64,000 nt of DNA. It comes from Octopus vulgaris. Lineage: Eukaryota. The stretch covers positions 89,094,001 to 89,158,000 of the forward strand of contig OX597821.1 of assembly GCA_951406725.2 (NCBI GenBank), given 5' to 3'. Position 1 is the first letter of the stretch; each line of letters begins with the position of its first letter. A model generated the notes under the pieces. That model was not told the DNA's origin, searched no databases, and saw only the letters and a program-made list of their open reading frames with translations. Shown here in pieces: positions 357 to 53,799 of the stretch. Made by a program: the position numbers and the translations under genes.

Positions 357-3248
<2,892 letters not shown>

Positions 3249-3514
3249 TCAATATAGGGTGGCAAAAAAATTTTGTAGAATTCTTTTGCCACCAGCGGCC
3301 TAGTGGGAAAAAATTAAATAGTCATAGACCATTTTTAAGTTCAACATCGACAATCAAGGAACGGCCATAATAGGCCATTCACCCACTAGAAATAACAGCC
3401 AAAGCTTCAACCGCAAATAAAAATTAATTCCGTAAACCAGGGAGAAAATTTAAAAAACATTTACCTTGTAATTTCTTATACGATATACCGTTTCATCTGC
3501 TGATTAATGGTAAA

Positions 3515-3549
<35 letters not shown>

Positions 3550-3876
3550 GACCTAAAATTTTCAAATCGTCACACTCGCGCCAAATTTATCGGCAGCAAA
3601 TAAATATAAGCCGTCGATTCCATTACGGAATTAACCAGAAAATTCATAATTAATCAATATAGGGTGGCAAAAAAAATTTTGTAGAATTCTTTTGCCACCA
3701 GCGGCCTAGTGGGAAAAAATTAAATAGTCATAGACCATTTTTAAGTTCAACATCGACAATCAAGGAACGGCCATAATAGGGCCATTCACCCACTAGAAAT
3801 AACAGCCAAAGCTTCAACCGCAAATAAAAATTAATTCCGTAAACCAGGAGAAAATTTAAAAAACATTTACCTTGTA

Positions 3877-3983
3877 ATTTCTTATACGATATACCGTTTC
3901 ATCTGCTGATTAATGGTAAACTAACCTGATTAAATTAAATCAAGCCAATCTTCCAAAGGCCCTCAGATTCTTCAGTAAGAAAT
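3877..3983 (-). ncRNA. Type I hammerhead ribozyme (minus-strand copy)
   Basis: Reverse complement of 4269-4375. Confidence 0.85.
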
Positions 3984-4268
3984 AGCCCAAGTCGGAACAG
4001 ATATTTTCACGAGGCAAATCCGACCTTGCCAAGGTTATATCTGACCTAAAATTTTCAAATCGTCGCACTCGCGCCAAATTTATCGGCAGCAAATAAATAT
4101 AAGCCGTCGATTCCATTACGGAATCGACGGAATCGACGGAATCGACGGCTTATATTTATTTGCTGCCGATAAATTTGGCGCGAGTGCGACGATTTGAAAA
4201 TTTTAGGTCAGATATAACCTTGGCAAGGTCGGATTTGCCTCGTGAAAATATCTGTTCCGACTTGGGCT

Positions 4269-4375
4269 ATTTCTTACTGAAGAATCTGAGGGCCTTTGGA
4301 AGATTGGCTTGATTTAATTTAATCAGGTTAGTTTACCATTAATCAGCAGATGAAACGGTATATCGTATAAGAAAT
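4269..4375 (+). ncRNA. Type I hammerhead ribozyme
   Basis: Stem I ATTTCTTA(4269-76)/TAAGAAAT(4368-75); core CTGAAGA 4277-83; stem II ATCTG(4284-88)/CAGAT(4347-51); GAAA 4352-55; short stem III ACGGT-AT-ATCGT; GUA cleavage triplet 4365-67. Confidence 0.88.
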
Positions 4376-4759
4376 TACAAGGTAAATGTTTTTTAAATTT
4401 TCTCCTGGTTTACGGAATTAATTTTTATTTGCGGTTGAAGCTTTGGCTGTTATTTCTAGTGGGTGAATGGCCTATTATGGCCGTTCCTTGATTGTCGATG
4501 TTGAACTTAAAAATGGTCTATGACTATTTAATTTTTTCCCACTAGGCCGCTGGTGGCAAAAGAATTCTACAAAATTTTTTTGCTACCCTATATTGATTAA
4601 TTATGAATTTTCTGGTTAATTCCGTAATGGAATCGACGGCTTATATTTATTTGCTGCCGATAAATTTGGCGCGAGTGCGACGATTTGAAAATTTTAGGTC
4701 AGATATAACCTTGGCAAGGTCGGATTTGCCTCGTGAAAATATCTGTTCCGACTTGGGCT

Positions 4760-4866
4760 ATTTCTTACTGAAGAATCTGAGGGCCTTTGGAAGATTGGCT
4801 TGATTTAATTTAATCAGGTTAGTTTACCATTAATCAGCAGATGAAACGGTATATCGTATAAGAAAT
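4760..4866 (+). ncRNA. Type I hammerhead ribozyme (second tandem copy)
   Basis: Same motif 491 nt downstream; predicted cleavage after 4858. Confidence 0.88.
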
Positions 4867-4963
4867 TACAAGGTAAATGTTTTTTAAATTTTCTCCTGGT
4901 TTACGGAATTAATTTTTATTTGCGGTTGAAGCTTTGGCTGTTATTTCTAGTGGGTGAATGGCC

Positions 4964-4965
<2 letters not shown>

Positions 4966-5014
<49 letters not shown>

Positions 5015-5066
5015 ATATATATATATAGACATATATGCATACATATGCATGTACGTGTATTTATGT

Positions 5067-5152
<86 letters not shown>
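4966..5152. repeat. (TA)n-rich microsatellite
   Basis: Seen directly. Confidence 0.95.
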
Positions 5153-5156
<4 letters not shown>

Positions 5157-5719
5157 ATAATGGAGAAATTATACAGGATGTATAAGTAGATGATGTATAA
5201 TTCCCGGGAAAGCGGGGCTTATCCCTTGGTTCCGTTCCCATAATTGTTTCACTAATCCAATAACAACAATATAAAGTATGTAACCCTTATAACGTTTTTT
5301 TTAATGCATTTACACAGAATACCGAACTGTCTTACACAGGATCTTGTTTTTACGAATTCCCAATGAGTTATGAATACCCAAATTGTGAAGTCAGTTATGC
5401 AATGAGAGGAAATTAGCTACTTAATAGTAAGAATTCAAATAAAGTAGCCCTGAAAAGGGCTTTAATAAGTTCCCAGAGTATATAGAACTTCGGAGGAAAC
5501 ACTAATAAGGTATGTATACTAAATTCGAGAAGCACATTACGTAATACATTGCTAATCAGATATGAGATAATAACAATTCAAAGTAAATAACTCTGAAAAG
5601 GGATTTTTGGGCGTTCCCAGAGAATATTACCCTCAGCGGCGCTTGTGTTGGTATATTCGTGAATAAGTCACTAACCGAAATATGTCGATCTATTGCTTAG
5701 GAAAATACTATTTACTTGT

Positions 5720-6050
5720 TTAAGGGTGGTACTGTATAAATTTCGGAAATAGCTCTAACAGTTCAAAAACTAAGAAATAAGCATACAAAATTTAATTTAT
5801 ACCAAATGATTTAGGAAAATGAATGCATTATTTCCCTTGGCTGTTAAAATCTGGGGGAATGGGTTACTTCCCTTGGCTGTTGAAATGAAATGTATTAGAT
5901 ATATTTAAGGATCCCTTCCAGGGGCCCTATTATCGATTTTTTTTTCAACAATCTGAGTATGCCATGAGGTTTCCAGACGTGTTTTACTCACGTGTCAAGT
6001 TTCATCAATATCGTTAAGACGATGTAGGAGGAGTTAGCTAACAACTCCTC
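5720..6050 (+). mobile_element. Possible Helitron/Helentron-type non-autonomous relic
   Basis: TGTCAAGTTTCATCAA...GTAGGAGGAGTTAG motif resembles invertebrate Helitron-like repeats; ends not defined. Confidence 0.3.
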
Positions 6051-6951
6051 AAACTCACCTACAGAAGGAATTTCCCACAGATCATGTGTTTTGGCTGTAA
6101 TCTTGTTATATACCCGTCTGGTTAGGGACTGAAACGCCTCAATTTTGAATTATTATTATCTTTCTTTAAGCATTGCAAACATTTATAAATATATGGCAAA
6201 TAACTGTCGATATATATGAACACACACACAGACATATAGTTATATACTTACAATATATTTGTACATGTAAACATACATAAACAGACATACACACTCAAAA
6301 CATTGATCTAAAATTTTATTCTCACATCTTCACTTATCTCCTGGTAGTGGGGGTTTAACATTAGACTATAAGCCTTTCTCTGTTAATCCCTTTATGCTTT
6401 TAGTTATTTGATCAAGTGCTGCTTGTCCAGAACACCAATTGGCGTCCAATTAAGCTGTAACAGATTCAGAGATAGAACAGTAGCTGGTAATGGTTAACAT
6501 TGTCATCTGTGTTCCAGCCACACACTTAAATCTATATACATTGTTAGCTGGAAGCTTTCCAATTAGAAGACCAGTACAATATTTGGTGGTGGTAGTGGTT
6601 GTGGTTGTAGTGGTGGTACTGCAGCTGTTGCTGCTGTTGATGGTGTTGTTGCTTGTCTTATTTTTTCTTGTTGTGTGTTGTGTGTTTTCTTGCTGCTGTG
6701 TTGTTGGTGGTAAAAGTAATAATGGTGGTGTTGGTAGTGGTAGAGTTCCTCATAATCTCTCCGTCGTCTCAATGCTGTAAGACAAAGAGAGAGAGTGTTG
6801 TGAGATAATAAGACAGAAAGAAATTACCAAAAGTAGCAAGGACACCAAAAGAAGTGAAAGTGAAAGAAAGGAAAGATACGAAAAATATAATTGGAAGAAG
6901 GGATTTCAGCATTTGAGGAAAGGACACTTAACAATGCGGCCATGCAATTGT

Positions 6952-6997
<46 letters not shown>

Positions 6998-7007
6998 CAG
7001 TAGTAGT

Positions 7008-7089
<82 letters not shown>

Positions 7090-7103
7090 TCAGCAGCAGC
7101 AGC
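6952..7103. repeat. (TAG)n/(CAG)n compound trinucleotide repeat
   Basis: Seen directly. Confidence 0.97.
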
Positions 7104-8311
7104 ACTTGCTACTGAGTTTGATATTTGAAGAAGCCTACCAAATCTTCAGCATAAATGTTCTTATTTCACCCGAGGTCAACTTTGATCGAGTAGACACATG
7201 ATCAAAGAGTTTCTACCTTTGACTCTCCTATTTCTCTTTATTTTTTCTTTTGTATATCCGGGAATAATTATCCAATATATACTTCCTGTTTTTGAAATAG
7301 CTACCTGCAATTTTGAAGAGAATTTGGTTGCTATTTTTATATAGCGAGTGCACAACCTTCGTAAATCAGCGGTAGGTTGTTTTGGTTTCTCATATACTGG
7401 TAACGAATTAATGCTCTTAAAATTGTGCCTTATAAACTATCTAAGGTAAAATTATAATGTACTCTTTCATCATTCAGTGCAGCCACATCACCATCAGTCA
7501 TTTCGGTATATTTCATCCTTAAATAACTGCTTGAGATGCTGTCTTGAGTGTTAGTCAGCATAGGAAGAGAGCCGATCGGCTAGGAACTAGCAACGGATCT
7601 AACGATCCATAGAAGATCATCAGCTCCACAGGTCGTTCCTCTAGAAATGACAACTAAATCTCCTGCAAATTTCATTCTCTATCTCAGGTACAATTTGTGC
7701 AGTTCCACCACGACGTATGATATATATTGGTAGAAATCACATTGTGAAATGAATTTACCGGTCTCTTAAGCGCATTTTTGGAAAAATTTGAGCTAAGTCA
7801 CTGGCCAAAGGATAAATATATCCTTTCGTCCGTTTTACAATATTAAAGTGTGGACCCTTGAAAAGTTTCATAGGAGCTGACCGGCATTTCTGCCTAAATC
7901 ATTAGAAAACCTAGCGTTGTAGAAATGGCAAAAGTTTTGTCACCTACATAGCGATTGTCGGTGATTCAGTCCATTTCGGTGCATTCGTTGATGACCGTAG
8001 TTTGAATTCTATTTGCACAACTGTATTAGGTGAAATTATAAGAAAATGACTGGGCAACGTTTCAATGCATTTATAACTATTTTGGCAATAATTCTCAAAA
8101 GTAGTACCTTGCATGACTTGATAATTTTAGCATTAAGACCTACAAGATAAAATTACATTTATATATTAGTGCAGTACTACATTGAAGTCGCTACACTTCG
8201 CTTTTAATGTTCCCTGGGCGGATGAAGTAAATACCAGTTAAATGATAATATGGGTGTATTCGTTTTTATTTGTATTTCAAGGCATCCTTGTATATATGCT
8301 AGGAAGCATTA

Positions 8312-8708
8312 TCTTTATATATAAAAGTGAGGTTGTGTGCTGTCTGTCTCCTACGATATAGATTCCTAACTACTCCCACATTTTGCGGTGCAGTTTAACC
8401 AAAACCGGGTATCTTATAGTCGTGATTCATATCAAGCCCTTCTGAGTATTAGCGCGCGTCTACGATGAGTCTACGATTTAAAAAAAAAATTACCATCAAT
8501 TTTTCCCATTTTTAATGCATTTTTGGCATATATAAGGGAAGTAACTCTCTAAAAATTTATTATTAAATCTCAGAACGTAAAAAGCTACAGTAACACCGCC
8601 CCCCCTTTGTGATTAGCCATATTGAGATGGCTATTATACTTTACATCTCTAAAAATGCTTATAGTTATTTCCCTTACAAACCCGAGCAACGCCGGGCGAT
8701 ACTGCTAG
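8312..8708 (+). mobile_element. Non-autonomous Helitron (~400 bp)
   Basis: A|TC 5' end (TCTTTATATATAAAAG), GC hairpin CCCG-agcaacgc-CGGG at 8681-8696, 3' end CTAG|T, no TSD. Confidence 0.85.
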
Positions 8709-9555
8709 TTATATATAAAGTGTAGTGTGCTGGATTTCAGGAAAACAATATTGTAGCACAAATGATTGGCGTTATTTAGTTATGTCCCTTTATATTGTGA
8801 ATTCAAATATGGTTATGATTGTCCTTCTATGGTCGATAAGCTGTGTACAAGTCACGTACTGACATCGATTAAATCGACTAAACCATTCTACTGAAGGTTT
8901 GTGGCTTCGTGCCAAAGTTAGAGATCGTTATTAAATTTATATTTTATAATTTTCCTTAAAATAAGTCTGTCTATTCAACCACTAATTAAATGGAACAATT
9001 TTAGGTATGTTATTAATGACTAATAATTCACAGAAACTAAACGTAAACGAATTAGAAATAACAATGTACCAATTTGCTGTTGGGCAAAAATGCAAGTTAT
9101 GTGGGTTATTCAAGTGTACTTATTATTCTCATTCAGAAATATATCAGAACAAATATATGAAAACAAGAAAGATATTTTAGAAGGATTGTTTAATATTTTT
9201 TTATAATTTAAAGAGAATTACTAACAACGATGGAAATGATGGATCCAAATCTTTAACAAAAATAAATAGACACAATGTAATGACAACTTCAAAGAAAATA
9301 AATGCCGTCAGTTTGCAACATAAAAATTAATAGAACATCCTAAGAACCAGTCGATAATTTTAAATATTTGGGAACCATCATTGCATCAGATGAGAAAAAA
9401 AAATTAAATCGATGGTTAGCCTAGCCAAATCTGTTTCCGATGAGATCAAACGTATATTGTCAGATAAATAGCTATGAATAATATGAAGAAAAGAATCCTA
9501 GGGACATATTCATAATCACTCTCTCCCTCTCCCTCTCTTCTTCCTCTTTCACTGT

Positions 9556-9573
9556 ATACATATATATGTATGC

Positions 9574-9627
<54 letters not shown>

Positions 9628-9772
9628 CGTTCGAAAAATGTTCGTTTTCTAAGTTTTTGCATTTCATGTTCTCGTTTCTCATTTTGTTGATGATTTTGAT
9701 GTCCTGTAACCATATATGCATGAATATATACATATATATATGTGTAGGTATGTACATATGCATATGTATATA

Positions 9773-9870
<98 letters not shown>

Positions 9871-9902
9871 CATGTATGTATGTATGTGTGATGTATGTAG
9901 TA
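9556..9902. repeat. (TA)n/(TATG)n microsatellite cluster
   Basis: Seen directly. Confidence 0.9.
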
Positions 9903-10372
9903 TGTATATATTTATATATATGGTTGTATAGACTGCAATTGTAACAAAGAGGTTTCAATTCTGCAGAGGTGGGATTCCTTAAACCACTGCTAAAGTCGGT
10001 ATATGCGGATGGGGGTGTTGTGGGGTGTCATTAATATGTTGCTGTAATGCTGTATCGATCAGACTCTCAGGTGTTGTTATATGTTTTCTTGAATAATTCG
10101 ATCTGTTCAATTAGCCCGACCGGATGATGATGAGTGATTCGAAAGAAATTTTACTGCTGCTTCTTGCAAGTTGAATAACTGTATCAAAGTTACCACGATG
10201 CTGAAAGGGAGGCTTTTCGCCATTCTTGCAGTCTGAAGGAGGAGAGAGCAGGGTCATCAAGAAGTGTTTAGTACAAATTTTAGGAAGCAATATATGATAG
10301 TGAGAGAAAAGATAGTTACAATCGCTGGGTTTAAGATGCAGTAATAACAAACCTAGGTGTATATCCTTTCTA

Positions 10373-10925
10373 TTGGGTTGTCCGGAAAGTTCGTGCCGAT
10401 TTTTAGAGGAAAGAAAAAGGTCATTACATTTTTAATCAACCAAATATGAAGCATGTTGTTGCATAATGCATCTTCATCTTTCCTTTAACTTGGAAATACC
10501 CTCTTCCTAGAATTGAGGTGGTTTCAGGGCAAAGAATTCATCAAGGTAAATTTTTACGTCATCCAAGAAATTGAAATTTTTTACCATTAAGACTATTCTG
10601 CAGAGACCTGAATTTGTGCAAATCCGAAGGAGCAATATCTGGTGAATATGGAGGATGGGGTAACACACCTCAGCCGAGCTGCAGCAATTTTTGTTTAGTT
10701 CTCAAGGCATCAAGTGCTGAAAAGGAACTTTCTTATCTTCCATTTTAAAGGGTTACAGAATTAACACAGGTTTTAGGAGCATAAATCTACTTCCACGAAA
10801 AGATAGCTTAAACTGTACTCTAAATGGAGGTGTAGTCAAATCCTATTTTATGGACTCAAACATGTTCTAAAATAAGTCGAAAGGTAAGTTGTTATAAATC
10901 GGCACAAACTTTCCGGACAACCCAA
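10373..10925 (-). mobile_element. Internally deleted mariner transposon with intact TIRs and TA TSD
   Basis: TA|TTGGGTTGTCCGGAAAGTTCGTGCCGATTT ... AAATCGGCACAAACTTTCCGGACAACCCAA|TA; minus strand encodes VLPHPPYSPDIAPSD..FRSLQNSL (mariner YSPDLAP motif). Confidence 0.92.
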
Positions 10926-10930
10926 TAGAA

Positions 10931-11130
10931 TTGGCACAAGGCCTGAAACGTTGTAGGAGGGGGATAGTTGAAAACAATGAGCTCAGTCACAACTGGTACT
11001 TATTTTATCGACCCCGAAATTTTGATAGACTAAGTCGACCTCAGCAGAATTTGAACTCAGAACGTAAAGACAGAAAAAATTCTACTAAGCATTTTACTCG
11101 GTATGCTAACTGTTCTGCCAGCTCACCACC
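10931..11130 (-). mobile_element. SINE family C (Meta-domain-like), degraded
   Basis: ACTGGTACTTATTTTATCGACCCCGAAA...GTCGACCTC..GAATTTGAACTCAGAACGTAA shared with other family C copies. Confidence 0.8.
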
Positions 11131-12016
11131 TGACAGTATATCACCAACAGAAGAAACTAACATACGGAAGAGCGTGTCTGTGTGCCAGTTGTTGTGTGGC
11201 GTATTGGTATACAGGTTTCTACCAATCAGATTTTAGGATGGAGTCTATGGTTTTTACACGGATAAAATACATGAACTTCCTTGTAATATGGATCCTGAGC
11301 GTTGAAGAAAATCAGTAATTGGTGTGAGCTGAGGTATTTCCTAATTCTGAAGAAAAAAAATCTAGTCTTTGTTTTGTAGCTTTTGTCATGTTTATATATA
11401 GAATCTCTTTAGAATATTATCAAGAATTTTAATGACCAGCATTCATAAGGACTGTTTTTCTGTATGTGCTATGCGTGCGTAGATAGGGTTTAGCCATTGC
11501 CTCCTCTATACAACTATTGCGACTGTACTGTTGGTGATTAAAAGAGACTAGTTTATTATGGCCCCCTTGGAGGACGTGTTTCTGTAACCACTGTATGTTT
11601 AGTGTAAGATGTTTTATGATATCTATGTTATATGTAAATGACATGTACATATAAGAAAATTAAAGGGTGTGTGAATAGCAATGCCACCAGCAAAAAAAAT
11701 ATAGTGCCATTAAAGCATTAACAGTGGCATTAAGGGTGTAATTAAGGTACAGAGAGAAGAGTATAAGAGACATTACCAAACCGTTAGCCGTAACCCACAT
11801 AACAAAATATGGTTTTGCGAGAGCATCGCTGACGCATTATTACGAAACTTGAAGGACAAATGATAATGTGAATGAAACCCATAGGCAAGCAACTTTTTCA
11901 GCAAGTTCATATGTTTCACGCATTTAGGGGCATTTTTGATTAAGTATTTGCGAAGTTGCTATGGTCGAGATTGTAGTCTGGGAGGGGTTTGAAATCATTT
12001 CATTACATCAGAAATG

Positions 12017-12405
12017 GGATTGAAGCACTCCGTCGGTTACGACGATGAGGGTTTCGGTTGATCCGAATCAACGGAACAGCCTGCTCGTGAAATTAACGTG
12101 TAAGTGGCTGAGCACTCCACTGACACGTGCACCCTTAACGTAGTTCTCGGGGATATTCAGCGTGACACAGAGAGTGACAAGGCCGGCCCCTTGAAATATA
12201 GGTACAACAGAAATAGGAAGTAAGAGTGAGAGAAAGTTGTGGTGAAAGAGTACAGCAGGGATCACCACCATCCCCTGCCGGAGCCTCGTGGAGCTTTTAG
12301 GTGTTTTCGCTCAATAAACACTCATAACGCCCGGTCTGGGAATCGAAACCGCGATCCTATGACCGCGAGTCCGCTGCCCTAACCACTGGGCCATTGCGCC
12401 TCCAC
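12017..12405 (-). mobile_element. tRNA-derived SINE family A, full length
   Basis: A/B boxes; TSD ATCAGAAATG at 12007-16 and 12409-18; near-identical to 48101-48486. Confidence 0.92.
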
Positions 12406-13027
12406 TGTATCAGAAATGCAATCTCAACAACACTGTGACCCTTTTCATTTAATCAATGTGTCTTTTGAGGTTCTGTATCAATATATTATGCAGGTAAGAC
12501 AATTACTCATGTGCTTACAGGTATACATCCAGCATTTCTACACAACTTGAACAGAAACAATTTAATGTGAGATTATAGTCAAACAAATAAAACTTGCCGT
12601 TTCGAAACAATCAATTTGTCATTTCATAAAGATTTATTCAAAAGCATATTAAGAATAGAATTATAAATTTGAATTTTTGTCTGCAAATTAAAATTGAATT
12701 TTATTCTATATTCATTTGATATATTAAAACGTTTTCTGTGACGATTAATTGCTGAGTCACTGATTGTAACGTAAACTTATTTATAAACAGTTAAATCACT
12801 GCTAACATAATATAGTGAACGAATTCATTTAATTAATCACTTAATGTAAAGCGATATTTCAAAGTTGTCGTTCCTACTTTTCTTGATTAGAATTAAGCAT
12901 TAAGCGAAAGCTTATTTCTACTCACTGCAGGAGGTCATGTTGATTGATTAAGATATTTTTGCTCACAACGTTAAATATGCTCGCACTAATTTAACCATTC
13001 TTTTTCTATATGGATAGTGTTCCTACA

Positions 13028-13352
13028 GTGAAGGCGCGTGACTTAGTGGTTAGGGTATTCGGCTCACAGTCGTAGGGTTATGAGTTCAATTCCTGGCGAT
13101 GTGTTGTGTCCTTGAGCAAAATATTTTATTTCTCGTTGCTCCAGCCAACTCAGCTGGCAAAAATGTATAAGCCTCCTATTTCAAAGGGCCAGCGTTTTCA
13201 CACTCTGTCAAACTGAATCTCTCTGCGAACTGCGTTAAGGGTAGTAAACGTGTTTGTGGAGTACTCAGCCACTTTCACGTTAATTTCACGAGCAATCTGT
13301 TCCGTTGATCGGATTAACTAGAATCCTCATCATCGTAACCGACGGAATGCCA
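13028..13352 (+). mobile_element. tRNA-derived SINE family A-related (CORE-like centre)
   Basis: A/B boxes, GTGTCCTTGAGCAA centre, 3' tail shared with the 12017 copy. Confidence 0.85.
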
Positions 13353-37513: not shown

Positions 37514-37928
37514 AGATTTTTTCGGTTTGAACGTCAGTTTTTAAAAATAATTTCCACGTAACTAAACCCTTTTAAACTTCGTAGACTGGTAGAATGTGTT
37601 TATAAAACATCTTTTTCTCTTGGCTTTATTGAAAAAAATTCTATTGTTTGTAAGATATTTGTTGTTTTTTTCTTCAATTTCTGCAATTTCAACCAATCAA
37701 TGACGTCTATTGAGGTGAAAACATTCTGTGCCGTATGAATATGTGCCTCGTTTAAGAAACAGATTGGGTTTATTTACATTTCTGAAGAAAAAAAGATACT
37801 CTTCCCCCCACCTCTAACTCTAACCCTAAAACATAGAAGTGCAATAGATCGTTACTAGGGTCATAATTATGGGTGACAATTTCATATGACACCGCTAGAA
37901 AAAACTGCCGTTCAAACCGAAAAGATCC
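37514..37928 (-). mobile_element. MITE, ~29-bp TIRs, 8-bp TSD (copy 1)
   Basis: TIR (G/A)GATCTTTTCGGTTTGAACGGCAGTTTTT; TSD TATACCTG/TATACCCG. Confidence 0.88.
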
Positions 37929-38021
37929 TATACCCGTTTTTATGTATATGTGCAATACTTTCTTACAGTGTATGTATTTAGGTTTTTTTTTAAACTAAGC
38001 TCATTAACGCATTAATTTCAA

Positions 38022-38217: not shown

Positions 38218-38564
38218 TAATCATATCAATATTCGCCTTCCAATATTAGCGTGGCCTCTTGTATAGCACCTAATCCTGATCTTTTACCAACTTTACTGTG
38301 TGACCTTTTATCTTTAAATCAGAGCACTCCACTTCTAGTAATGCTTGTCTAGTTGTCCCTCTTGTCCTGTGTATCTTCTACAAAAGGCACATTGTAAAAT
38401 TTGAACAATAAGCACATCACTTATATGCATCATACATATTATACGAGTGCAGTTATATTGCTTTTACACATGGATTGATGAATTTGATATGCAAATACGG
38501 CTAATTTGCATGTTGCTTGTGTGTTAACATTTCACTTCTCTTCAACATATGTAGAATACTTCTA

Positions 38565-38996
38565 AGATCCTTTCGATTTGAACGGCAGTTTTTTCTGGCG
38601 GTGTCATATGAAATTGTCACCCATAATTATGACCCTAGTATCGATCTATTGCATTTCAATCTGTTTTAGGGTTAAGGTTAGAGTTAGGGTTAGGGTTAGG
38701 GGTGGGGAGAAGGGTATCTTTTTTTTCAGAAATGTATATAAACCCAATCTGTTTCTTAAACGAGGCACATATTCATACGGCACAGAATGTTTTCACCTCA
38801 ATAGACGTCATTGATTGGTTGAAATTGCAGAAATTTAAGAAAAAAACAACAAATATCTTACAAACTATAGAATTTTCTCAATAAAGCCTAAAGAAAAAGA
38901 TGTTTTATAAACACATTCTACCAGTATGCGAAGTTTAAAAGTGTTTAGTTACGTGGCAATTATTTTAAAAAACTGCCGTTCAAACCGAAAAGATCC
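38565..38996 (+). mobile_element. MITE copy 2, opposite orientation, with internal TTAGGG-like array
   Basis: Same TIRs; perfect TSD TACTTCTA at 38557-64 and 38997-39004; TTAGGGTTAAGGTTAGAGTTAGGGTTAGGGTTAGGG at ~38666-38701. Confidence 0.9.
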
Positions 38997-40409: not shown

Positions 40410-41372
40410 ACATTTTGGCACAAGACCAGCAATATTGGAGGAAGGTATTAGTCGAATACCTGTACTTATCTTATCAACCACAGAGCTCAATTAGTACTTA
40501 TTTCATCAACCCCGATATAATGAACGGCAAAGTTGACCGTGGCAGCATTTGAACTCAGAAGGTAAAGATCAATGAAAATCGGCGAAGCATTTTTGCCGCA
40601 GTGTGCTCGCGAGTCTGCCAGTGCGCTGCTTTTATTGATGCTGTTAATACTAGGTCAATGTAAGGCAGCAAGCAGGCAGAACATTAGCATGCCCGGTAAA
40701 ATGCTTAGCGGCATTTCGTCTGTCTTTACGTTCTGAGTTCAAATTCCGCCCAGCTCTACTGTGTCTTTCATCCTATCGGGAGTCGATAAAATAAGTACCA
40801 GTTGAACACTGAGGTTGATGTAATCGACCTACTCCATCTCCAGAAATTACTGGCCTAGTGCCGAAATTTGAAATCAATACTAGATCAATGTAGCACGCGA
40901 GGTATGAGGCTAAGCGGCATTTCGTTCGTCCTTATGTTCCGAGTTCAAATTCTGCCGAGATCGATTTTGCATTTCGTAGTTTTGTGGTCTGTAAAATATG
41001 TGCCAGTTGAGCACTGGGCTCAACTTACTCTCTACCCAACTTACTCCCTACCCTCGAATTTGTGCCAAGATGTGAAACTAATACTAGATCAATGTTGTTG
41101 AAAAGAGATACTCTTTTCGAAAATATAAGGACAAAAATACCTATTTCTTTACTACCTACAAGGGGCTAAACACAGAGAGGACAAACAAGGAAAGACACAC
41201 AGATTAAGTCGATTATATCGACTCCAGTGCATAACTGGCACTTAATTTATCGACCCCGAAAGGATGAAAGGCAAAGTCGACCTCGGTGGAATTTGAACTG
41301 AGAGCGTAACGGCAGACGAAATACTGTCACGCATTTCGCCCGGCCTGCTAACGTTTCTGCCAGCTCAACGCC
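40410..41372. mobile_element. Cluster of four family C SINEs (-, +, +, -)
   Basis: Copies at ~40410-40630(-), 40663-40870(+), 40890-41075(+), 41140-41372(-). Confidence 0.85.
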
Positions 41373-41394
41373 TTATAAGGGCATATAGATATTG

Positions 41395-41478
41395 TCGGCC
41401 TCTAAGCAGACCTTTTGCGATACGCTTAAAGCCAGGAACTTTTCAGCCCCCCCCCCCCCTCGTGTATATGTATATGTA

Positions 41479-41521
<43 letters not shown>

Positions 41522-41826
41522 GCATTTCAATACTAACAGACCAATGTATATAGATATGTATATATACACATATACATAGATTCATATATATATATATATA
41601 TATATAGCTATAGGTATGTATGTGTGTGTGTGTGTGGCTTGGGGTAAAAGAAAATACAGGAATATAGTTGATTATAGTTGTATTGAACATATTCCACTCT
41701 CAAAGTCACATATTGCAGCGCTCCTTCACTTTTTTAAGCGTTGTAAAACGCTGAGAAGTTTAGGCCTCCAAGCAGGCCTTTCGCGGTACGCATTTAGGCA
41801 GGAACTTTTCAGCACCCCCTCGTGTA
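41395..41826. mobile_element. Two mariner-like TIR ends in direct orientation (third, inverted copy at ~43219-43246)
   Basis: AGGAACTTTTCAGC(A/C)CCCCCTCGTG|TA at ~41435-41466 and ~41799-41826. Confidence 0.6.
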
Positions 41827-43486
41827 TATGTATATATATAGGTATGTATGTATATATAATATTTGCTCCTGTATACATTTATATAAACATATAAAAACCA
41901 ATCGTATATAAATAAAATAAAACAAAAGAAGCCACTGGACAATAACGATAGATAAAAAACGTACATCACTCTACAATATTCACCAATGGAAATAATACAT
42001 AAGTATAATAAATAAATGCGATATATTAATTCGGAATCGCTTTTCTTAAGCGAAATATTAATATAAGATGTAAATGATTGAGAAACACAGACGTTTTCCA
42101 TTTTTTGTCTCGAAACACAGCATTAAATATTTATAATAATTGGGCCTATCGTTATATGACACCACCATCCTCAGGCTCACAGACAGACAGCACTATATTT
42201 CATTTATCGCGAGAGATGGAAAATAGAGACGTTACGATTTCTATCTCAAGGCATACTTCATATTTGCTCAGGAGTATATTGCAGATGGCTCTGAATTTTC
42301 CTGTAATTCATACTTCAAAATTTTTAGGCTGTGACTGTAGTGTGAACTTTGTCCAAGTTCACACTACAGTCACAGCCTAAAAATTTTGAAGTATGAATTA
42401 CAGGAAATTTCAGAGCCATCTGCAATATACTCCTGAGCAAATATGAAGTATGCCTTGAGATAGAAATCGTAACGTCTCTATTTTCCATCTCTCGCGATAA
42501 ATGAAATATAGTGCTGTCTGTCTGTGAGCCTGAGGATGGTGGTGTCATATAACGATAGGCCCAATTATTATAAATATTTAATGCTGTGTTTCGAGACAAA
42601 AAATGGAAAACGTCTGTGTTTCTCAATCATTTACATCTTATATTAATATTTCGCTTAAGAAAAGCGATTCCGAATTAATATCTCGCATTTTTTTTTGTTA
42701 TACTTATGTATTATTTCCATTTGTGAATATTGTGTACGAAAATTTACGTTCCAATTTTACAACGAGACAACATCTTTTGAATTCCAGGAGTTTGTCTGTG
42801 TTTTCATTTCAGAGGATGAAACAGTCGTCCAGGAATCTTTTCCAATTTTCTTTTATGTATCGGGAAAGAAGGTTTCCAAAGGTAGATAAAGGATCAGCAA
42901 AGATTTCATCCTACGGTTGAATTCATCCTACGAAACAGTCACTTCATGTTTGACAACATGTTCTATCGACACCAATCCGGAATTGCCATGGGCACTGGGG
43001 CAGCCCCGGTCATTGCGAATCTAACAATAGACTATCTGGAAATAATAATATTCCAATTTTACAACGAGACAACATCTTTACTGATGTACGTGTTTTCATC
43101 TATAGTTATTGTCTAGTGGCTTCTTTTGTTTTATTTTATTTATATACGATTGGCTTTTACATGTTTATATAAATGTATACAGGAGGAAATATTATATATA
43201 TATATATATATATACATATACACGAGGGGCTGCTGAAAAGTTCCTGCCTAAATGCGTATCGCGAAAGGCCTGCTTGGAGGCCTAAACTTCCCAGCTTTTT
43301 TCAGCGCTTAAAAATGTGAAGGAGCGCTGCAATATGTGACTTTGAGAGTGGAATATGTTGAATACAACTATAATCAACTATATCCCTGTATTTTCTTTTA
43401 CCCAAAGCCACACACACACACACACATATATATACACATAGATACATACATACATACATATAGCTATATATATATATATATATATA
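41585..43486. repeat. Large inverted repeat (palindrome), 5-nt spacer at 42350-42354
   Basis: GTGTGAACTT-tgtcc-AAGTTCACAC centre; inner ~327 bp arms with one mismatch found; outer arms more diverged; insertion in right arm. Confidence 0.95.
42773..43055. mobile_element. Rearranged Penelope-like RT fragment (two oppositely oriented pieces)
   Basis: 42773-42889 matches 44869-44985 directly (minus strand WKRFLDDCF); 42894-43055 matches the reverse complement of 44993-45154 (QSGIAMGTGAAPVIANL). Confidence 0.88.
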
Positions 43487-43716
43487 CGAGATATATATTT
43501 ATTTATTTATTAACACTACCCAGATTACTACCACAACTTCCATCACCCTTACAGATAGAATAATTAACAACAACGATAGCAATATTATTGTTAAATAATA
43601 GTAATAATAGCATTAATAATACTAATAGCTTAGACCGTTCTACCCCCATCTCTAACCTCTCCTATGTCAGCATTACATCCTCAATTCCTGAAAATAATCC
43701 CAAAAATACACCCACT

Positions 43717-44102
43717 TGTAACTGCCATCCTGGGTCCATCTGCCTTCTATAAAGCCATTGTAGAAAATCTAATATAATTTATAAATGCGCCGTCCTCAAT
43801 ACATTACACAATTGTACAGCTATATATATATACGATCAACCATAAGTTTTAAACAGCGATATTCTGCTCATCTCAATTCTTTTAGATACGAGAAACATAG
43901 TAAATCCACAACACACGCCAGTCATCTAAAAAACAGAAATATTTCCTACACTTTTTCATAGTCCATAATAGATTCAGGGCTTCCATACCAAGTTCAGCGC
44001 TTAGCCTGTAAGTTATGCCTTAAAGAGGCATTCCACACATTAAAACACAACTCCTCAACACTACTATACAAATATAATGAGGCCCTAAGTGCATGCAACC
44101 AC
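43717..44102 (+). pseudogene. GIY-YIG endonuclease relic of a Penelope-like element
   Basis: CNCHPGSICLL*SHCRKSNIIYKCAV...YI(R)ST.SFKQRYSAHLNSFRYEKHSKST...CKLCLKE...LLYKYNEALSACNH; one frameshift, two stops. Confidence 0.82.
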
Positions 44103-44868
44103 TGCTTTTATCATACCTTAAAATTTTACCACAAATCTAAATCCAGCCTAAATAACCACACAGTATATATATCCACAATACACCCTAGTTAATCCCCAAC
44201 AACACTAATTATCTCCATTTTAATTTTTAATCGTAAATTAATTCCCCTATCTTACTTCAATAATCACAATCATTTAATTCTACATATATGAACATATAGA
44301 GATACATGTGTGTGTGTGTACAGGTATTTTAAATATGTATGTATTCGTATGTGGGTATATATATATAAATGAGTGTGTATATGTGTATATATGTATATGT
44401 ATGTATCTTTAAGCGCGCATGCGTGTGAATGTAATTGAGTGTGTATGTATAGGTGTATGTATGTGAGTGCATGCGTACGTATGCCCTTATACCATATTTC
44501 CTCCTCTTCTATTCCTACGTATCACTAACCTATCACATACGTCTATATATAGTAATTTGACATTGTTCTATTCTTCCCTCCACCTCAAATTTTTCTACCA
44601 AAACTACAGCTCACTTCGGTATCACCCTACCCATACCTTTTCTATACATTTTCTCTAACCATTCTTTAATACAGCACCGTCATATCACCTCTACCCATAT
44701 ATCTCATATTCTTTTACTCCTTACCTTCTCATCCCTTTCTATCCCTCCCCCACACCTATCCCATCCTCCCATCACATTATCTTGACCACCAACTAACACT
44801 TCTTTTCTCACTTCTTTCACTTTTTCTTTACTTCTTTTTTCACTCTGTTGTTTTCTCTCTCCCTTTTT

Positions 44869-45505
44869 TCTTTTGAATTCCAGGAGTTTGTTTGTGTTTT
44901 CATTTCAGAGGATGAAACACTCGTCTAGGAATCTTTTCCAATTTTCTTTTATATATCGGGAAAGAGGGTTTCCAAAGGTAGATAAAGATTCCTGGAATAT
45001 TATTATTTCCAGATAGACCATTGTTAAGTTCGCAATGACCGGGGCTGCCCCAGTACCCATGGCAATTCCGGATTGTTGTCGATAGAACATGTTGTCAAAC
45101 ATGAAGTGACAGTTTCGTAGGATGAATACAACCGTAGAATGAAATCTTTGCTGAAACTTTCTGGTATTTGTTCCGGATATTCGTCCAGCCAAAACTGAAT
45201 TGCCTCTATCAATTCAGTTATGATGTATATAAGGTATACTGGTATATAAAGTAAACCATGATTGTTTCTTCCTTGACTTGTTTTGGGAGGTGATTTAACA
45301 TGTCCAAGTCAACTCTGATATAGCTATTGATGTGTTTAAGGAAGGGTTTCAGGAGGATGTGCATAAATAGACTTAGTCTGTGTGTTTCACTCGCTGGGCC
45401 CGCTATAATAGGTCGTAATTTTAGATACACTGGCTTTTGCGTATGTATGTACGCCTCTTGTGAGTTTTTATGGTTTCACTCGAAATCTGCCTTTTATGGA
45501 TTTTT

Positions 45506-45575
<70 letters not shown>

Positions 45576-45700
45576 TTAGAGAGTAGTCAATCCTGTTGTG
45601 GTATTCCAAATTTCGTAGATCATTTTAGTAGCGGATATGCACTGCACTTTGAATACGAATTCGGTATACTTATGTGAAGTAACTTCTGAAATTTCCATTT
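44869..45700 (-). pseudogene. Penelope-like element reverse transcriptase relic
   Basis: KIHK, LRPIIAGP, FILRNCHFMFDNMFYRQQSGIAMGTGAAPVIANLTM..LE, WKRFLDECF; frameshifted and interrupted by (TA)n. Confidence 0.88.
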
Positions 45701-45754
45701 GTTACTACACACACAGACATGCATACAACTATATGTGGGTGTATACGTATATAA

Positions 45755-45790
<36 letters not shown>

Positions 45791-45829
45791 CTAAATTTTC
45801 GCTATGTGGCTAAGCAATTTGCCGCTTAA

Positions 45830-45894
<65 letters not shown>

Positions 45895-45977
45895 TGTATT
45901 TTTTCTCAAAACAGTTTCTGCACTGTATGTCTTCGAATGTCAGGGGATTCAAAAACACGGGGAATATGATTGTACAT

Positions 45978-46036
<59 letters not shown>

Positions 46037-46770
46037 CATGTATGTATGTATGTATGTATATATGCGTATATGTAGTTATATTCGTGTATGCATATATATG
46101 CATCTATCTATACACGTGTATATACATACACGAATAAAGACGAAAATATATTAATGCGCACAAAATGTGTATGCACGAGTGTCTGTGTGCGCATATATGT
46201 GTGTGTATGGGTATTTGTATTTGTGTGTGTGTGTGTGTGTGTGTGTACATTATGCTACGTAAACTTGCGCACGTAGAGTAAATTCTATTATTAGATCTAT
46301 TTTCCTTGAATATTTCCTCAGTATTTTCAATGCACTTTTAAATTTTTCAGTTAGCTACTTTCTTTTCGTATGATTTTCTTTCAATTTCACATTATTTGTT
46401 TGTAGTTTTTTGTATCCAGATTTTGTGAGTCTTTTGTAGGTTTGCAATATAATTTCAAAAATATTTCTATTCATGCATACGTACTTACTTTCATAGATGC
46501 AAATCGTATATATTCCAGATTCCCTCACTTTTGTAGGCAATACGCAAATGTTTACACACACATACTAACACACACACATATATATATATATATATGTATG
46601 TATAAAGAGAGAGAAAGGAGGAGACATAGAGAGTACTTTACATGTGTATATGTAAGCAGGATTATATATATATATGTGCATGTGTGTGTGCACGTGTGTG
46701 TGTATTATATACATAAGTATAAAAACACATACACGCACAAATAAAGATACGTATGCATACATGTATGTAC

Positions 46771-46807
<37 letters not shown>

Positions 46808-46824
46808 GACATATATACTTATAT

Positions 46825-46878
<54 letters not shown>

Positions 46879-47195
46879 ACATACCCGTAATTTAAGAAAA
46901 GTAAAACAACAAGCAAAACGACACAGTATAACAGATGGAAAATAAAAATTGCAGTCTTGCTTAAATTGGTGTTAAAATGCTAATTTTGTCTCAGTTTTCC
47001 AGGCCATTTCTCTCTAAGATTCACATCTCAATTTTTCTGTCAGCTTACATATTCGAGCCAAATCGTAATATATAAAATATATTGAGTAACGAAAATAAAC
47101 AAATAATCTATCCCATTTGTGTTTCGTGCACAGTTTTTCATGAGATTATTTTTCAATTTATTGTTGATGTTAAATATATATATATATACATGAAA

Positions 47196-47240
<45 letters not shown>

Positions 47241-47381
47241 TTTAATATGTATATACCTGTGTAAACACATATGCATATATAAATATATATATCTATGTTT
47301 ATATATATGTATATATATATACCTATATAATATATAAATATATAAAAATATATTATACATACGTGTGTGTCTGTATACGTG

Positions 47382-47448
<67 letters not shown>

Positions 47449-47480
47449 GTATATATATGCATACACACAAACGCACACAC
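45505..47480. repeat. Dense array of (TA)n/(TG)n/(TATG)n microsatellites
   Basis: Multiple tracts seen directly. Confidence 0.9.
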
Positions 47481-48100
47481 ACTTATCCGATAGATATTGT
47501 TTATTCTTCTGACTTGCCAAACGTTTTTCAGCTTCATGGCGTTCGTGGCTTCACCGGAAAATATCTGATGATTGTGTGTGAGTGAGAAATATTTTCGAAA
47601 TTCTGAGAATAAGCACTACTTTATTTGAATTATGAACACCGTCATAAGACTAGGTCTGTGTGTCGGGTGTAAATACGTGTGGTTTCGTGTATGTATATGA
47701 GCGTACACGTGCGCTTACAAACACACACACGGACACACACACACACATACACAATCACACACTCACAAACATGCATATTTATATCCATTGCGTATGTAAA
47801 ATTTTATTTTTTATTGATATATTTTATATAACGTATCGATTATCAGCGCCGCCATCATGGTATTTATTTATATTTTTCTAGTCAATACTTCATTATTTTA
47901 TATTCGAAGCAACCTTACATTATTTTAACTATTTTTACCGCTGTTCTGGGCAACAGTTAATCACTATACAATTCAACAAAATGCAGAGTACATGTTTTTC
48001 AGTTAATTTTGTGCCACAAAAATATGTGTTACGAGCACTCGTATGAACTATTACGTGTTAGTGCCATCGTTATTGATGTCACTCTTATCATGGTCCGACT

Positions 48101-48486
48101 GGATGGAAGCACTCCGTCGGTTACGACGATGAGGGTTCCGGTTGATCCGAATCAACGGAACAGTCTGCTCGTGAATATAACGTGTAAGTGGCTGAGCACT
48201 CCACAGACACGTGCACCCTTAACGTAGTTCTCGGGGATATTCAGCGTGACACAGAGAGTGACAAGGCCGGCCCCTTGAAATATAGGTACAACAGAAACAG
48301 GAAGTAAGAGAAAGTTGTGGTGAAAGAGTACAGCAGGGATCACCACCATCCCCTGCCGGAGCCTCGTGGAGCTTTTTTTAGGTGTTTTCGCTCAATAAAC
48401 ACTCACAACGCCCGGTCTGGGAATCGAAACCGCGATCCTATGACCACGAATCCGCTGCCCTAACCACTGGGCCATTGCGTCTCCAC
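48101..48486 (-). mobile_element. SINE family A, full length, 12-bp TSD
   Basis: TSD CATGGTCCGACT at 48089-100 and 48487-98. Confidence 0.92.
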
Positions 48487-49169
48487 CATGGTCCGACTAC
48501 CCACAATAACAATATCTATAGGCAGCAGAACTCCTTTAAGAGACTAGATGACGTGGAAATCTTGTCGGTACCACATCTTGGAAGATTAAGTTGTTAAACT
48601 TGCGGAAATAAAAGTTACTTGACAAAAATAATGCAGGAAATGGTGGTTTGCAAGCGGTACCACGAACAGCAATGTTAACAACATCAAGACCTAGTTTGAA
48701 GTATGCGTCATGGAACTACTGTTCTCAGAATGCTCTCTGTCGCAGCTCCAAGTTAAGTAACTTATGGGCAAGGGAAAATGACTTCTTGAAGCATCAAGGC
48801 CCGGATTTCACCGGGAAACCGAGGAATCTCTTTCCTCATTAGAGGGCTCCCCAGAAGCTATGAAAAGTTGTAGCATCCCAATCTCTTGTTGTCATAAGTA
48901 GGAAGAACATGGTGAATGAGGAAAAGTGAGAACCAACGAAATGAAGTACAACAACAATCATAGCAATCGATCACTATTATGTACTAACTGCACTTGAGCT
49001 GGAAAAAATCTGGCAAATGAAAGAATCAAGTGTCAGTTGTTATCCAGAGATAACCTATTGAAATGGTTCATTGGCGGGTTTTGAACTCAATAAAACGGAC
49101 GAAATTCTTCTAAACCTTTTACCAGTCATGCTGAGGATTCTGCGAACTTGCTATCTTAAATTTCGTAAT

Positions 49170-49980
49170 GTTTTCAATTTTTGGCACCAGGCCAATAGGT
49201 TCGGGGAAGGGTGTAAATCGATAACATTGACTATAGTGTTTAACTATCATTTATCTTACCCAACCCCGAAAGGATGAAAGGCAAAGTCGACCTCGGCAGA
49301 ATTTGAACTCAGAACGTTAAGACGGGCGAAATACCGCTATGCATTTCTTCCAGTGTTCTAACGATTCTGCCAGCTCGCTGCCTCAAAGCTCTTAAATAAT
49401 CCTTTTTACTAAAAGCCACAAGGTCTGAAATTTGGTTGGAGGCGACTTGTCGATTGCATCGATTTCAGTATTTCACTGGTACTCAATTCATCGACCCCGA
49501 AAGGACGAAAGGCAAAGTCAACCGCGGCGGAACTTGAACTCAAAACAGCGACAGGCGAAATACCTATTTCTTTACTACCTACAAGGAGCTAAACACAGAG
49601 GGGACAAACAAGGACAGACAAACGGATTAAGTCGATTATATCGACCCCAGTGCGTAACTGGTACTTATTTAATCGACCCCAAAAGGATGAAAGGCAAAGT
49701 CGACCTCGGCGGAACTTGAACTCAGAACGTAGCGACAGGTGAAATACCTATTTCTTTACTACCTACAAGGTGCTAAACACAGAGGGGACAAACAAGGACA
49801 GACAAACGGATCAAGACGATTACATCGACCCCAGTGACCAACTGGTACTTATTTAATCGACCCTGAAAGGATGAAAGACAAAGTCGACCTCGGCGGAATT
49901 TGATCTCAGAACGTAGCGGCAGACGAAATACCGCTAAGTATTTCACCTGGCGTGCTAACGTTTCTGCCAGCTCGCCGCCT
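49170..49980 (-). mobile_element. Family C SINE followed by a tandem SINE trimer
   Basis: Monomer 49170-49383; trimer 49401-49980 with 184-bp period, flanked by CAAAGCTCTTAAATAAT at 49384-400 and 49981-97. Confidence 0.88.
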
Positions 49981-51159
49981 CAAAGCTCTTAAATAATGGC
50001 AACATAAAACCATTACTACTGTATTCTCCCACGAATATTGCATCTCAAATTCAAATTATTTGTCAAGATGAAGTCACCGAGGGCGCCAGTCGACCTGATG
50101 GCATAGAAAGAAATCAAAAATATGAATATCACGTGCATTCATTATTACGTTATACGTCTTTACTAAAAGCTGCAGTTGAAACGATTAACAAAGTGGTTAG
50201 GCACCAGAAAATTAATCATAAAGTTTGCCAAATGCAGTGATTACAAAATCTATTAAAATATTCCTTGTATTCACTTGCAGCAACCATCCACCACTGAAAC
50301 TGGGAAAGAGATAATCATTTTTAACTCTTTGTAACTGAGTCAAAAATAATAACCGATATTTAGACATTTTCTTTAATTAACTTAAATTAGGAGAGAAACA
50401 ACATAAGAACAAAAACAACAAATGTTTAAATTCAGTTGCATTTGTGCTTCCTGCATATTTTAAAGCTGTACTATTATTAAATGAAACTAATTGAATATTT
50501 AAATTTAACCTTTATTTATAGTGCTATATAATGGTTTCACTGCGCAAATGGAATGAAAGGGAGAAAGCAAGAAAGCAAAATGAAAAGCAACGAATACTGA
50601 ACGAATGAATGAATGTGTGGATGAATAAATAAATAAATACATAAAAATCGAGGAAAGAGGAAAGGAGAAGAAAAAAAATGGGAACAAAATCCATTTATGC
50701 AAATGAGAAGAGAAACTTAGTTTTATAACTAATGAAGGTGCTATATCATATTGGATTATATTCATTTAACATCATTTAGCGTTCAATGTCCTTCTTGCAA
50801 AGCGTTTGTTAAATTTTATTAGTGCAAATCACCGATAAATCTTCATCCTAGCTGTCTAAGTGGCCATACATTATGCTGCAATATTTTGTATTATTCCCTA
50901 CCTCACCCACGCCATCTGCCTTGTAAACTTAGCAGGTTTGAAAGCACATTTGCAATGGCTGAAGACATAGAGTGTTGCTAAAGTAATTCTAGCATCTCTC
51001 TCTAAACCATTAGTGTTGGTACTGTGTTGTAATCATCACCAGCGTATTGAACTTCTTTGCTTTATTAAGTTACCTCATGACGTATTTGCCGCTGAAACTG
51101 GATTTACTGATGAACGTTTAGAAAAGTGAATGAATGGAGTGCTTCCTTCTCTCTGTGTT

Positions 51160-51280
51160 ATCGTTGTTGTTGCTGTTGTTATTGTAGTTGTCTATATTGT
51201 TGCCTTTATCGATAATTTTGTTATTGTTAGATTCATTATTGTTGTTACTATCGTCTTTGCCGTCGCTACAGTTATTATTA

Positions 51281-51311
<31 letters not shown>

Positions 51312-51326
51312 TATTATTATTATTGT

Positions 51327-51383
<57 letters not shown>

Positions 51384-52130
51384 AACTGCTACTACTACTA
51401 CTACTATTATTATTATTATTGTTATTGGCATTGTAATGGTTGCGTTATTGCTGTTGTTATTGTCGTTGTTATTGTTACCTTTAATTTTATTGTTGTTGTT
51501 GTAGCACTTAATGTCTTTATCGTTAGATAACAATACACGTTATTACATTTATTGTTGTTAATGCAGTTGTTGTCGTTATTGACGTCGTAATAGCTACAGT
51601 CGTGTTGTTGCTATCATTGTTTTTTTTTGTTTTTTCTCATCATTATCGTTGGTGTTGTGACTTACAATAATAAAGGTAAGAAGAATAGCTACATCAACAA
51701 CAACAACAACAACAACAACAACAGCAACAGCAACAACAACAGTAATTGTCACGACAATAATATCAATAACGAACAATAACGTTTACAACAGCAATAATGA
51801 TAACAACAATAAAAGTTACAGCAGCCATCATATCAAGAGTGGCAATGACATCTAAAATAATAAATACTAAGAACAACAAGAATGATAACAATAACAACAC
51901 AACGCTACCATCTACAATATTGTAGGTCTTTTAGCTTTCGTTGCACTTGTTTGAGCTGTTGCAGTTCTTGTGGTTTTTGCTATGTTATTGTTTATACCCT
52001 TGCTATACTTGTTATAGCCTTTTTTGTTGTTACCGTTTGTGTTGTAGTTAATGCTAATGTTGCTCTTACCGTTATGGTTTGTTTGTTTTTTTCCTTTTGG
52101 TGTTGCTTCCGGTTTTGCTATTGTTGTTAC
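51160..52130. repeat. (TAT)n/(TAC)n/(TTG)n/(AAC)n low-complexity trinucleotide region
   Basis: Seen directly. Confidence 0.9.
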
Positions 52131-53507: not shown

Positions 53508-53650
53508 TTCAAATTTTGGTACGTGGCCAACACTTTCGAGGGTAATCGATTACAGCTACCCCACTGCTGAACCGGTACCTATTTTACTGACACCGAATGG
53601 ACAAACAAAGAAATTGAACTCAGAACGTAAAGACGGACGAAATGCCGCTC
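53508..53650 (-). mobile_element. SINE family C fragment
   Basis: TTGAACTCAGAACGTAAAGACGGACGAAATGCCGC. Confidence 0.7.
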
Positions 53651-53799
53651 TCTAGACACACACACACATAAACACAGACACACGCACACACACACACACG
53701 CACACATACACACACGCGCATATATATCCTAATTGCATGTAAATGGGGAAGTATCTCACTTTTACAGCTATTACAACTTGCACTACAGTGCGCCTGCAT

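Follow-up and report, generated by a model that had tools for sequence, protein, structure and literature searches.

The junction at 4118-4148 of the window (the whole stretch of DNA analysed, 64 kb long) is probably a real and young insertion seam, and its stutter is probably not an artefact. The explanation that we favour, to which we give about an even chance, is the young head-to-head insertion of a retrozyme into (TA)n, trans-mobilised by a Penelope-like protein with reverse transcriptase (RT) and GIY-YIG domains, in which two primed cDNAs with a shared stop were joined by microhomology and a host polymerase stuttered. Judged from its letters, the stutter is closer to the scar left by ordinary joining of DNA than to proof of telomerase-like copying, which is a possible and testable reading but an unproven one. 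What is new here is the retrozyme family, the layout of the insertion being already known, and one junction whose signature is of a common, repair-like type amounts to a lead and not to a discovery.

The results showed that the three 9-nt copies described by the original prediction are present, with GGAATCGAC starting at 4120, 4129 and 4138; the word has 4 occurrences in the window, and the fourth, at 4629, lies inside an ordinary reverse unit. The turn was likewise found at the hairpin where it had been placed, ATTCC-ATTAC-GGAAT at 4110-4124, which is weak (-2.9 kcal/mol as DNA) and is one of eight stems of at least 5 bp with loops of 3-10 nt scanned in the 491-nt unit. Over 4104-4151, the left arm reads as ordinary unit through 4124, two extra 9-mers follow, and the right arm reads as ordinary reverse unit from 4138. 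The features of the junction are as follows:

4110 to 4124, plus strand: 5-bp inverted repeat with a 5-nt loop, the turning point, read from the sequence
4118 to 4148, plus strand: perfect 9-nt array of 3.4 copies, 18 nt beyond a clean fold-back
4629 to 4639, plus strand: ordinary copy of the 11-nt GGAATCGACGG (the 9-nt repeat and its 2-nt terminal repeat), 1 nt 3' of a 14-bp helix

The 9-nt periodicity is perfect from 4118 to 4148, where ACGGAATCG is repeated for 3.4 copies. Because the periodicity starts at 4118, the repeat is bounded by ACGG and not by GG alone, and the overlap common to the left arm and the array is 7 nt (4118-4124) and not 5. This is the only perfect, non-simple array with a period of 7-12 and at least three copies in the window, and no comparable array was found in 237 kb from 80 Penelope-like loci; the array is therefore not ascribed to chance.

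Self-comparison identified three pieces (A, B and C) of one 491-nt unit within a (TA)n tract:

3212 to 3243, no strand: (TA)16, left remnant of the target microsatellite, from the sequence
3241 to 3518, minus strand (RNA sense): piece A, a 278-nt fragment of the 491-nt unit, from self-comparison
3518 to 3547, no strand: (TA)15 between pieces A and B, where about 111 nt of the unit are absent
3543 to 4124, minus strand (RNA sense): piece B, the inverted arm, 582 nt (1.19 units) with its 5' end at the junction, from self-comparison
4138 to 4969, plus strand: piece C, the direct arm, 832 nt (1.7 units of 491 nt), its overlapping parts identical
4967 to 5153, no strand: (TA)n, right remnant of the target microsatellite, from the sequence

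Pieces B and C are joined 5' to 5', because the hammerhead sense is plus in C and minus in A and B. The three pieces differ by 2 substitutions and 3 homopolymer indels, and all of them carry at 3872 a T that makes up less than 1% of the summed depth in each of four runs (depth being no copy number); on these sequences they most likely came from one donor at one time. The arms B and C are mirror images for no more than 572 nt, and since the right arm continues without interruption over 4708-4969, where the mirror in the left arm holds the TA tract, it is more than a plain copy of the left one. Neither arm is obtainable from the other by plain mirror copying, and the earlier description of the strand as continuing in the simple reverse complement of the left arm fails at 4708-4969, by which the right arm is longer than the mirror.

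Both ends of piece A overlap the TA tract by short microhomology, and its 5' truncation (sense position 4328) falls within the 3' strand of a predicted 14-bp helix other than the one at the junction. The 3' ends of the pieces lie at 111, 237 and 340 nt past the predicted ribozyme cut and overlap TA by microhomology in all three cases, that of C, at 111 nt, being in a UA-rich hairpin loop which matches the TA target. A target-site duplication is unreadable with both ends of the element in (TA)n. The TA run at 3519-3542, which stands in place of the roughly 111 nt of unit, begins inside the strongest RNA hairpin and is possibly a hop of the polymerase onto the target and back. The wider TA tract (698-5153) has been struck by several retroelements; at 895-3211 (ORF 1648-3132, minus strand) it holds a 5'-truncated LINE (RVT_1, E 9e-30) with a short tail of 4-nt repeats.

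The element fits a non-LTR retrozyme of a new family, putatively a non-autonomous Penelope derivative, with self-cleavage and circular RNA predicted. A type I hammerhead motif was found in three places, and in two consecutive units (4270-4374 and 4761-4865) it is complete in core, stems and triplet:

3878 to 3982, minus strand: type I hammerhead motif, the inverted-arm copy, from a motif scan (core starting at 3975 on the minus strand)
4270 to 4374, plus strand: type I hammerhead with stem I, CUGAAGA, a long stem II, GAAA, a short stem III and the GUA triplet at 4365-4367, from a motif scan (fold z -3.35)
4761 to 4865, plus strand: second hammerhead motif on this strand, 491 nt past the first, from a motif scan (core starting at 4768)

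The only ORFs of at least 100 aa over the element are TA-repeat read-throughs. Rfam returned 10 matches, all sub-threshold and of microRNA type, with no ribozyme among them; the palindrome accounts for such matches, and a microRNA precursor was rejected. The unit or a part of it is present in 20 of the 24 public runs listed. It is very abundant, with 784-13,329 unit-matching contigs per run in four runs under two organism labels and a summed depth of 10^4-10^6 in the runs examined. The head-to-tail joint 4124->3632 was found in all four runs examined, and the only run recorded as RNA contains 0.06 of the words of the unit. A 23-nt family motif had 0 matches in metagenome and viral contigs, no relative was found in the viral collection, and a search of 80 Penelope-like loci from other organisms for an autonomous partner matching the unit gave nothing better than E 0.11. 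Read by hand, and therefore weak as observations, the listed variants at 3904, 3905 and 3968, all three in the hammerhead's 5-bp stem II, leave the pairing intact as G-U, and the 40 substitutions listed for 3632-4124 all fall outside the hammerhead core and stem I.

Non-LTR retrozymes derived from Penelope-like elements have been reported in animals (PMC7229834, Cervera & de la Pena 2020; bioRxiv 10.64898/2026.07.22.740005, Li, Clavereau & Pollet 2026). The available text of these reports describes the same non-coding tandem unit of low GC, with a type I hammerhead per unit, two consecutive ribozymes, very high copy number and strongly self-paired RNA, the last of which is predicted in our case. 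The 491-nt unit is longer than the 170-400 nt given in PMC7229834 and lies within the 51-972 bp of bioRxiv 10.64898/2026.07.22.740005, and inverted arrangements, which are present in this element, receive no mention in the main text of PMC7229834.

The window also holds a Penelope-like RT fragment at 44869-45213 and a related fragment at 42773-43055, the latter with an internal inversion and a 4-nt overlap at 42888-42891. Relatives of the former fragment combine the RT with a C-terminal GIY-YIG domain and an upstream Cys motif (GIY-YIG in 9 of the 12 scanned), and the relatives of the window fragments are presumably Neptune-like. The RT fragment, at 44905-45213, represents a likely helper class for the retrozyme. 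At 3 of the 80 Penelope-like loci (L002:2586, L008:2938 and L009:3764), minimal type I hammerhead motifs were observed just downstream of the ORF and on its sense strand.

A library or assembly artefact, in the form of a fold-back chimera or a mis-resolved palindrome, appears very unlikely to us. It would agree with a long near-perfect palindrome inside a very high-copy repeat, with the location of all three homopolymer indels in the left pieces, and with the lack of cover on the junction side in three of the four runs examined. It agrees poorly with flanks that are two different unique sequences, with arms that mirror each other only to 572 nt and differ by 2 substitutions, and with short-read run X3, which covers 4136-4165 evenly. 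The depth in X3 was 34.4 in both bins (4136-4153 and 4154-4165), in comparison to 0 in X1, X2 and X4, with the limits that the ordinary unit also fits 4138-4165, that the stutter count is unreadable from this cover and that X3 may be the source sample. Since a junction unitig is predicted to span 4095-4167, even depth over both bins suits one junction contig; against this, the X3 junction record is not among the 32 pieces listed. A further point against an artefact is that 24 two-place records of another run gave no junction cover. The low-depth cover in X3 thus argues weakly against an artefact. Inheritance of the junction from a master copy was rejected, as the junction side has a depth of 0-34 in comparison to 10^4-10^6 on the unit; with such a summed depth on the unit, the junction is not inherited family-wide. 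No strand-change joint was seen among the 12 joints listed, and since contigs drop rare forms this is no evidence of absence.

The favoured explanation would proceed in three steps. Both strands of the TA target would be nicked, and each 3' end would prime cDNA on multimeric or circular RNA at UA-rich matches. Both cDNAs would then stop at or just inside one 14-bp RNA helix, where the 5-bp inverted repeat would make their ends complementary. Short realignments on the CC/GG or ACGG repeats would finally add the two 9-mers; in the sequence, the overlap is lengthened from 5 to 7 nt and the palindrome spacer widened from 5 to 23 nt. A host DNA polymerase is the most probable agent of this third step, acting either during joining (by loop-out or trans SD-MMEJ, Pol theta-like) or later (by slippage or repair at the palindrome centre). 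The two strands of the helix are:

4410 to 4423, plus strand: 5' strand of the predicted 14-bp long-range helix, pairing with 4614-4627 (pair probability about 0.9 on average, whether folded as a circle or linearly)
4614 to 4627, plus strand: 3' strand of the same predicted helix, overlapping the ordinary copy of the fold-back hairpin

This helix is the only perfect inverted repeat of at least 10 bp in the unit. Two cDNAs need a shared stop because their ends lie about 15 nt apart within a 491-nt unit, and the stop sites of A, B and C all lie in, or at most 2 nt from, the 3' strand of predicted 14-bp helices, in zones which make up 10% of the unit, the test being post hoc and B and C not independent. 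The shared stop helix is a prediction of the folding model, and at one junction all four routes to the stutter give the same letters. For C, the 3' end sits in a UA loop with no pairing at all; for B, it is predicted to be paired, which would fit the model of two primed cDNAs less well.

Outside support for two primed cDNAs comes from a purified Penelope-like protein which, in the available part of the report, cuts each of the two target strands, extends them, and begins copying at a stem-loop within the RNA (PMC11167929). Several observations count against the favoured explanation: it is drawn from a single junction, at which all routes yield the same letters; the 3' ends differ by 126-262 nt and lack the tail of 30-40 nt known from canonical Penelope insertions; the TA tract leaves no target-site duplication readable; and no autonomous partner is tied to the unit. 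Two other turns were rejected, namely a snap-back of the right-hand cDNA, which is excluded as it would place the other loop strand on the plus strand, and a turn at the ribozyme cut, which is 229 nt away.

The original prediction was of an element related to Penelope, with an inversion that turns on the 5-bp hairpin, and this much stood, as did a loop orientation (ATTAC on the plus strand) that allows a fold-back of this strand; snap-back followed by slips on GG is not the best reading of the stutter. In that account, a left cDNA ending at 4124 folds back through the 5-bp hairpin, is extended by 6 nt, slips twice on GG and copies itself, and its sense tail later anneals to the right cDNA. We consider it unlikely, although the loop orientation matches a plus-strand fold-back, the turn is exactly at the hairpin, and snap-back of a cDNA ahead of 5' joining is documented for R2 in the accessible text of PMC11371274. 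It leaves the matching AC at 4118-19 to coincidence (0.057 by base composition), and in each of the two slips a stem of 11 bp (-13.2 kcal/mol) would give way to one of 2 bp (+1.6), at a cost of about 15 kcal/mol. Snap-back of the left cDNA alone cannot account for 4708-4969, where TA would have been the template, and an extra step is needed for this segment. The telomerase-like label does not apply to this account either, because its template is DNA, on which Pol theta is as capable as an RT.

A telomerase-like reading would instead require that the RT copied GGAAUCGACGG on RNA, met the 14-bp helix 1 nt further on, realigned twice on the 2-nt terminal repeat and annealed to the left cDNA by 7 nt. 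Such reiteration of a 9-nt stretch at a helix boundary through a 2-nt alignment, with the reiterated end making the microhomology that sealed the join, is in our judgement improbable, to the same degree as the snap-back account. In its favour, an 11-nt stretch that carries a 2-nt terminal repeat is placed 1 nt 3' of a helix whose pair probability is about 0.9, and the AC match is explained by the 7-nt overlap. The part of PMC4993307 available describes a 2-nt alignment region in some rodent telomerases and a helix as the usual template boundary, and the likeness extends to a short stretch with a terminal repeat copied three times in phase, with a predicted helix directly 5' in the RNA. The geometry of a helix beside a repeat is common, however, because all three helices of at least 14 bp have a stretch with a 2-nt repeat within 3 nt and a 2-nt repeat (period 5-12) begins at 45% of the unit positions. 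Most of the stretch is paired in the predicted circular fold, the RT passed the ordinary site at 4629 unchanged, and the 12 joints listed hold no family-wide signal. The template would offer 1.2 repeats (11 nt for a 9-nt repeat) in comparison to the 1.5-2 typical of telomerase, and, unlike telomerase, the case consists of one event at an internal junction, with the site read normally one unit earlier, no TERT and no dedicated RNA.

The chance is slimmer still, in our view, that an antisense transcript ending at 4124 folded back, with the RT stuttering at initiation and copying RNA into the right arm while the left arm remained or was rebuilt. This would agree with how the loop is oriented and with a right arm that exceeds the mirror of B in length, and the accessible text of PMC3846280 (Arkhipova et al. 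2013) proposes it for head-to-head Penelope palindromes. It is at odds with the purified system of PMC11167929, which according to the text available primes on nicked target DNA, and with the right end of C (a stem-loop, 111 nt past the cut), which resembles an internal start of that system.

Synthesis of the SD-MMEJ type, by loop-out or in trans, and later slippage together account for the stutter with a probability that we put at about one half. The pattern of SD-MMEJ was found at the junction, in that the insertion lies within a longer direct repeat beside the join, with short primer repeats and new microhomology, which speaks for the pattern and not for an enzyme. Two identical rounds of SD-MMEJ are less usual than one. 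The bare junction already holds ACGG twice, 9 nt apart, in the middle of the 572-bp palindrome, which would serve later slippage or repair of a centre break. Slippage and centre-break repair at palindromes are both named in the accessible part of PMC3300023.

The available descriptions of SD-MMEJ (PMC5728401) comprise a direct primer repeat, short synthesis and new microhomology, while Pol theta is described as melting and re-priming short snap-back stems (PMC4912351); the junction shares with them an insertion in a new direct repeat, 2-4-nt primer repeats and a longer microhomology. With R2, in which cDNA snap-back is described at 5' junctions (PMC11371274, accessible text), it shares an antisense copy at the 5' junction of a retroelement. 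These data come, as far as the available texts go, from flies, human cells and purified enzymes, whereas here we infer the host polymerase.

A second palindrome was observed at 41973-42733 (arms 42010-42349 and 42355-42694), with 97.8% identity over 763 nt, a 5-nt spacer and no stutter, nested in wider inverted arms of unrelated sequence (41548-41968 and 43082-43498). Because the palindrome at 42010-42694 keeps its 5-nt spacer, revision of a centre is not obligatory.

As to the layout, a 5'-truncated copy in inverted orientation is often found next to Penelope-like insertions, which prefer (TA)n, and the mechanism of the inverted ends is called undefined (PMC8557442, available text). In Pen2a_Av of Adineta vaga, the inverted and the direct pLTR have an overlap of 15 bp, junction palindromes are common and self-priming was proposed (PMC3846280, available text). 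The present junction shares with Pen2a_Av and with Naiad/Neptune (PMC8557442) the head-to-head 5'-truncated copy and the short overlap or palindrome where the copies meet (15 nt here and 15 bp in Pen2a_Av), together with the (TA)n target and the unreadable target-site duplication. In comparison to the inverted 5' pLTR insertions of these texts, it has no ORF and no 30-40-nt tail (optional there), and it has a third piece and an internal TA tract. Since head-to-head copies, a junction palindrome and self-priming were published for Penelope in 2013, the proposal that the locus may be a footprint of how inverted ends form holds something extra only in the stutter, fold-back at a palindrome with self-priming being in PMC3846280 already. 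The 18-nt tandem addition is absent from the junction descriptions available in PMC3846280 and PMC8557442, and the literature search found no account of reiteration at Penelope junctions, subscription papers being mostly beyond its reach.

The base rate of the stutter was surveyed in 80 of 209 Penelope-like metagenome loci (237 kb), which are too few for a rate. One clear fold-back was found among them, in locus L060, where it lies in the ORF, tail to tail, with a spacer of about 54 nt and no array; at L060:1235-1452 it turns at a 5-nt inverted match and may be an amplification chimera. None of the 9 other inverted repeats inspected in the 80 loci had an array with a period of at least 7.

With a young locus almost free of mutations and a very abundant family, counting the inverted junctions across the family could tell twin priming from snap-back and from antisense self-priming. 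Recurrence of the stutter at the helix would bear on the origin of telomerase repeat addition, and reiteration by the RT, if true, would be genomic evidence of latent repeat addition in the sister group of TERT, with an RNA substrate ready at hand.

Elsewhere in the window, inverted copies (89%) of a repeat of about 430 nt with degenerate TTAGGG runs (38666-38701) were observed at 37515-37930 and 38563-38995. A dispersed SINE-like family, which we take to resemble cephalopod SINEs, occupies seven places within 40464-58405, with 2.5 tandem copies at 49475-49932.
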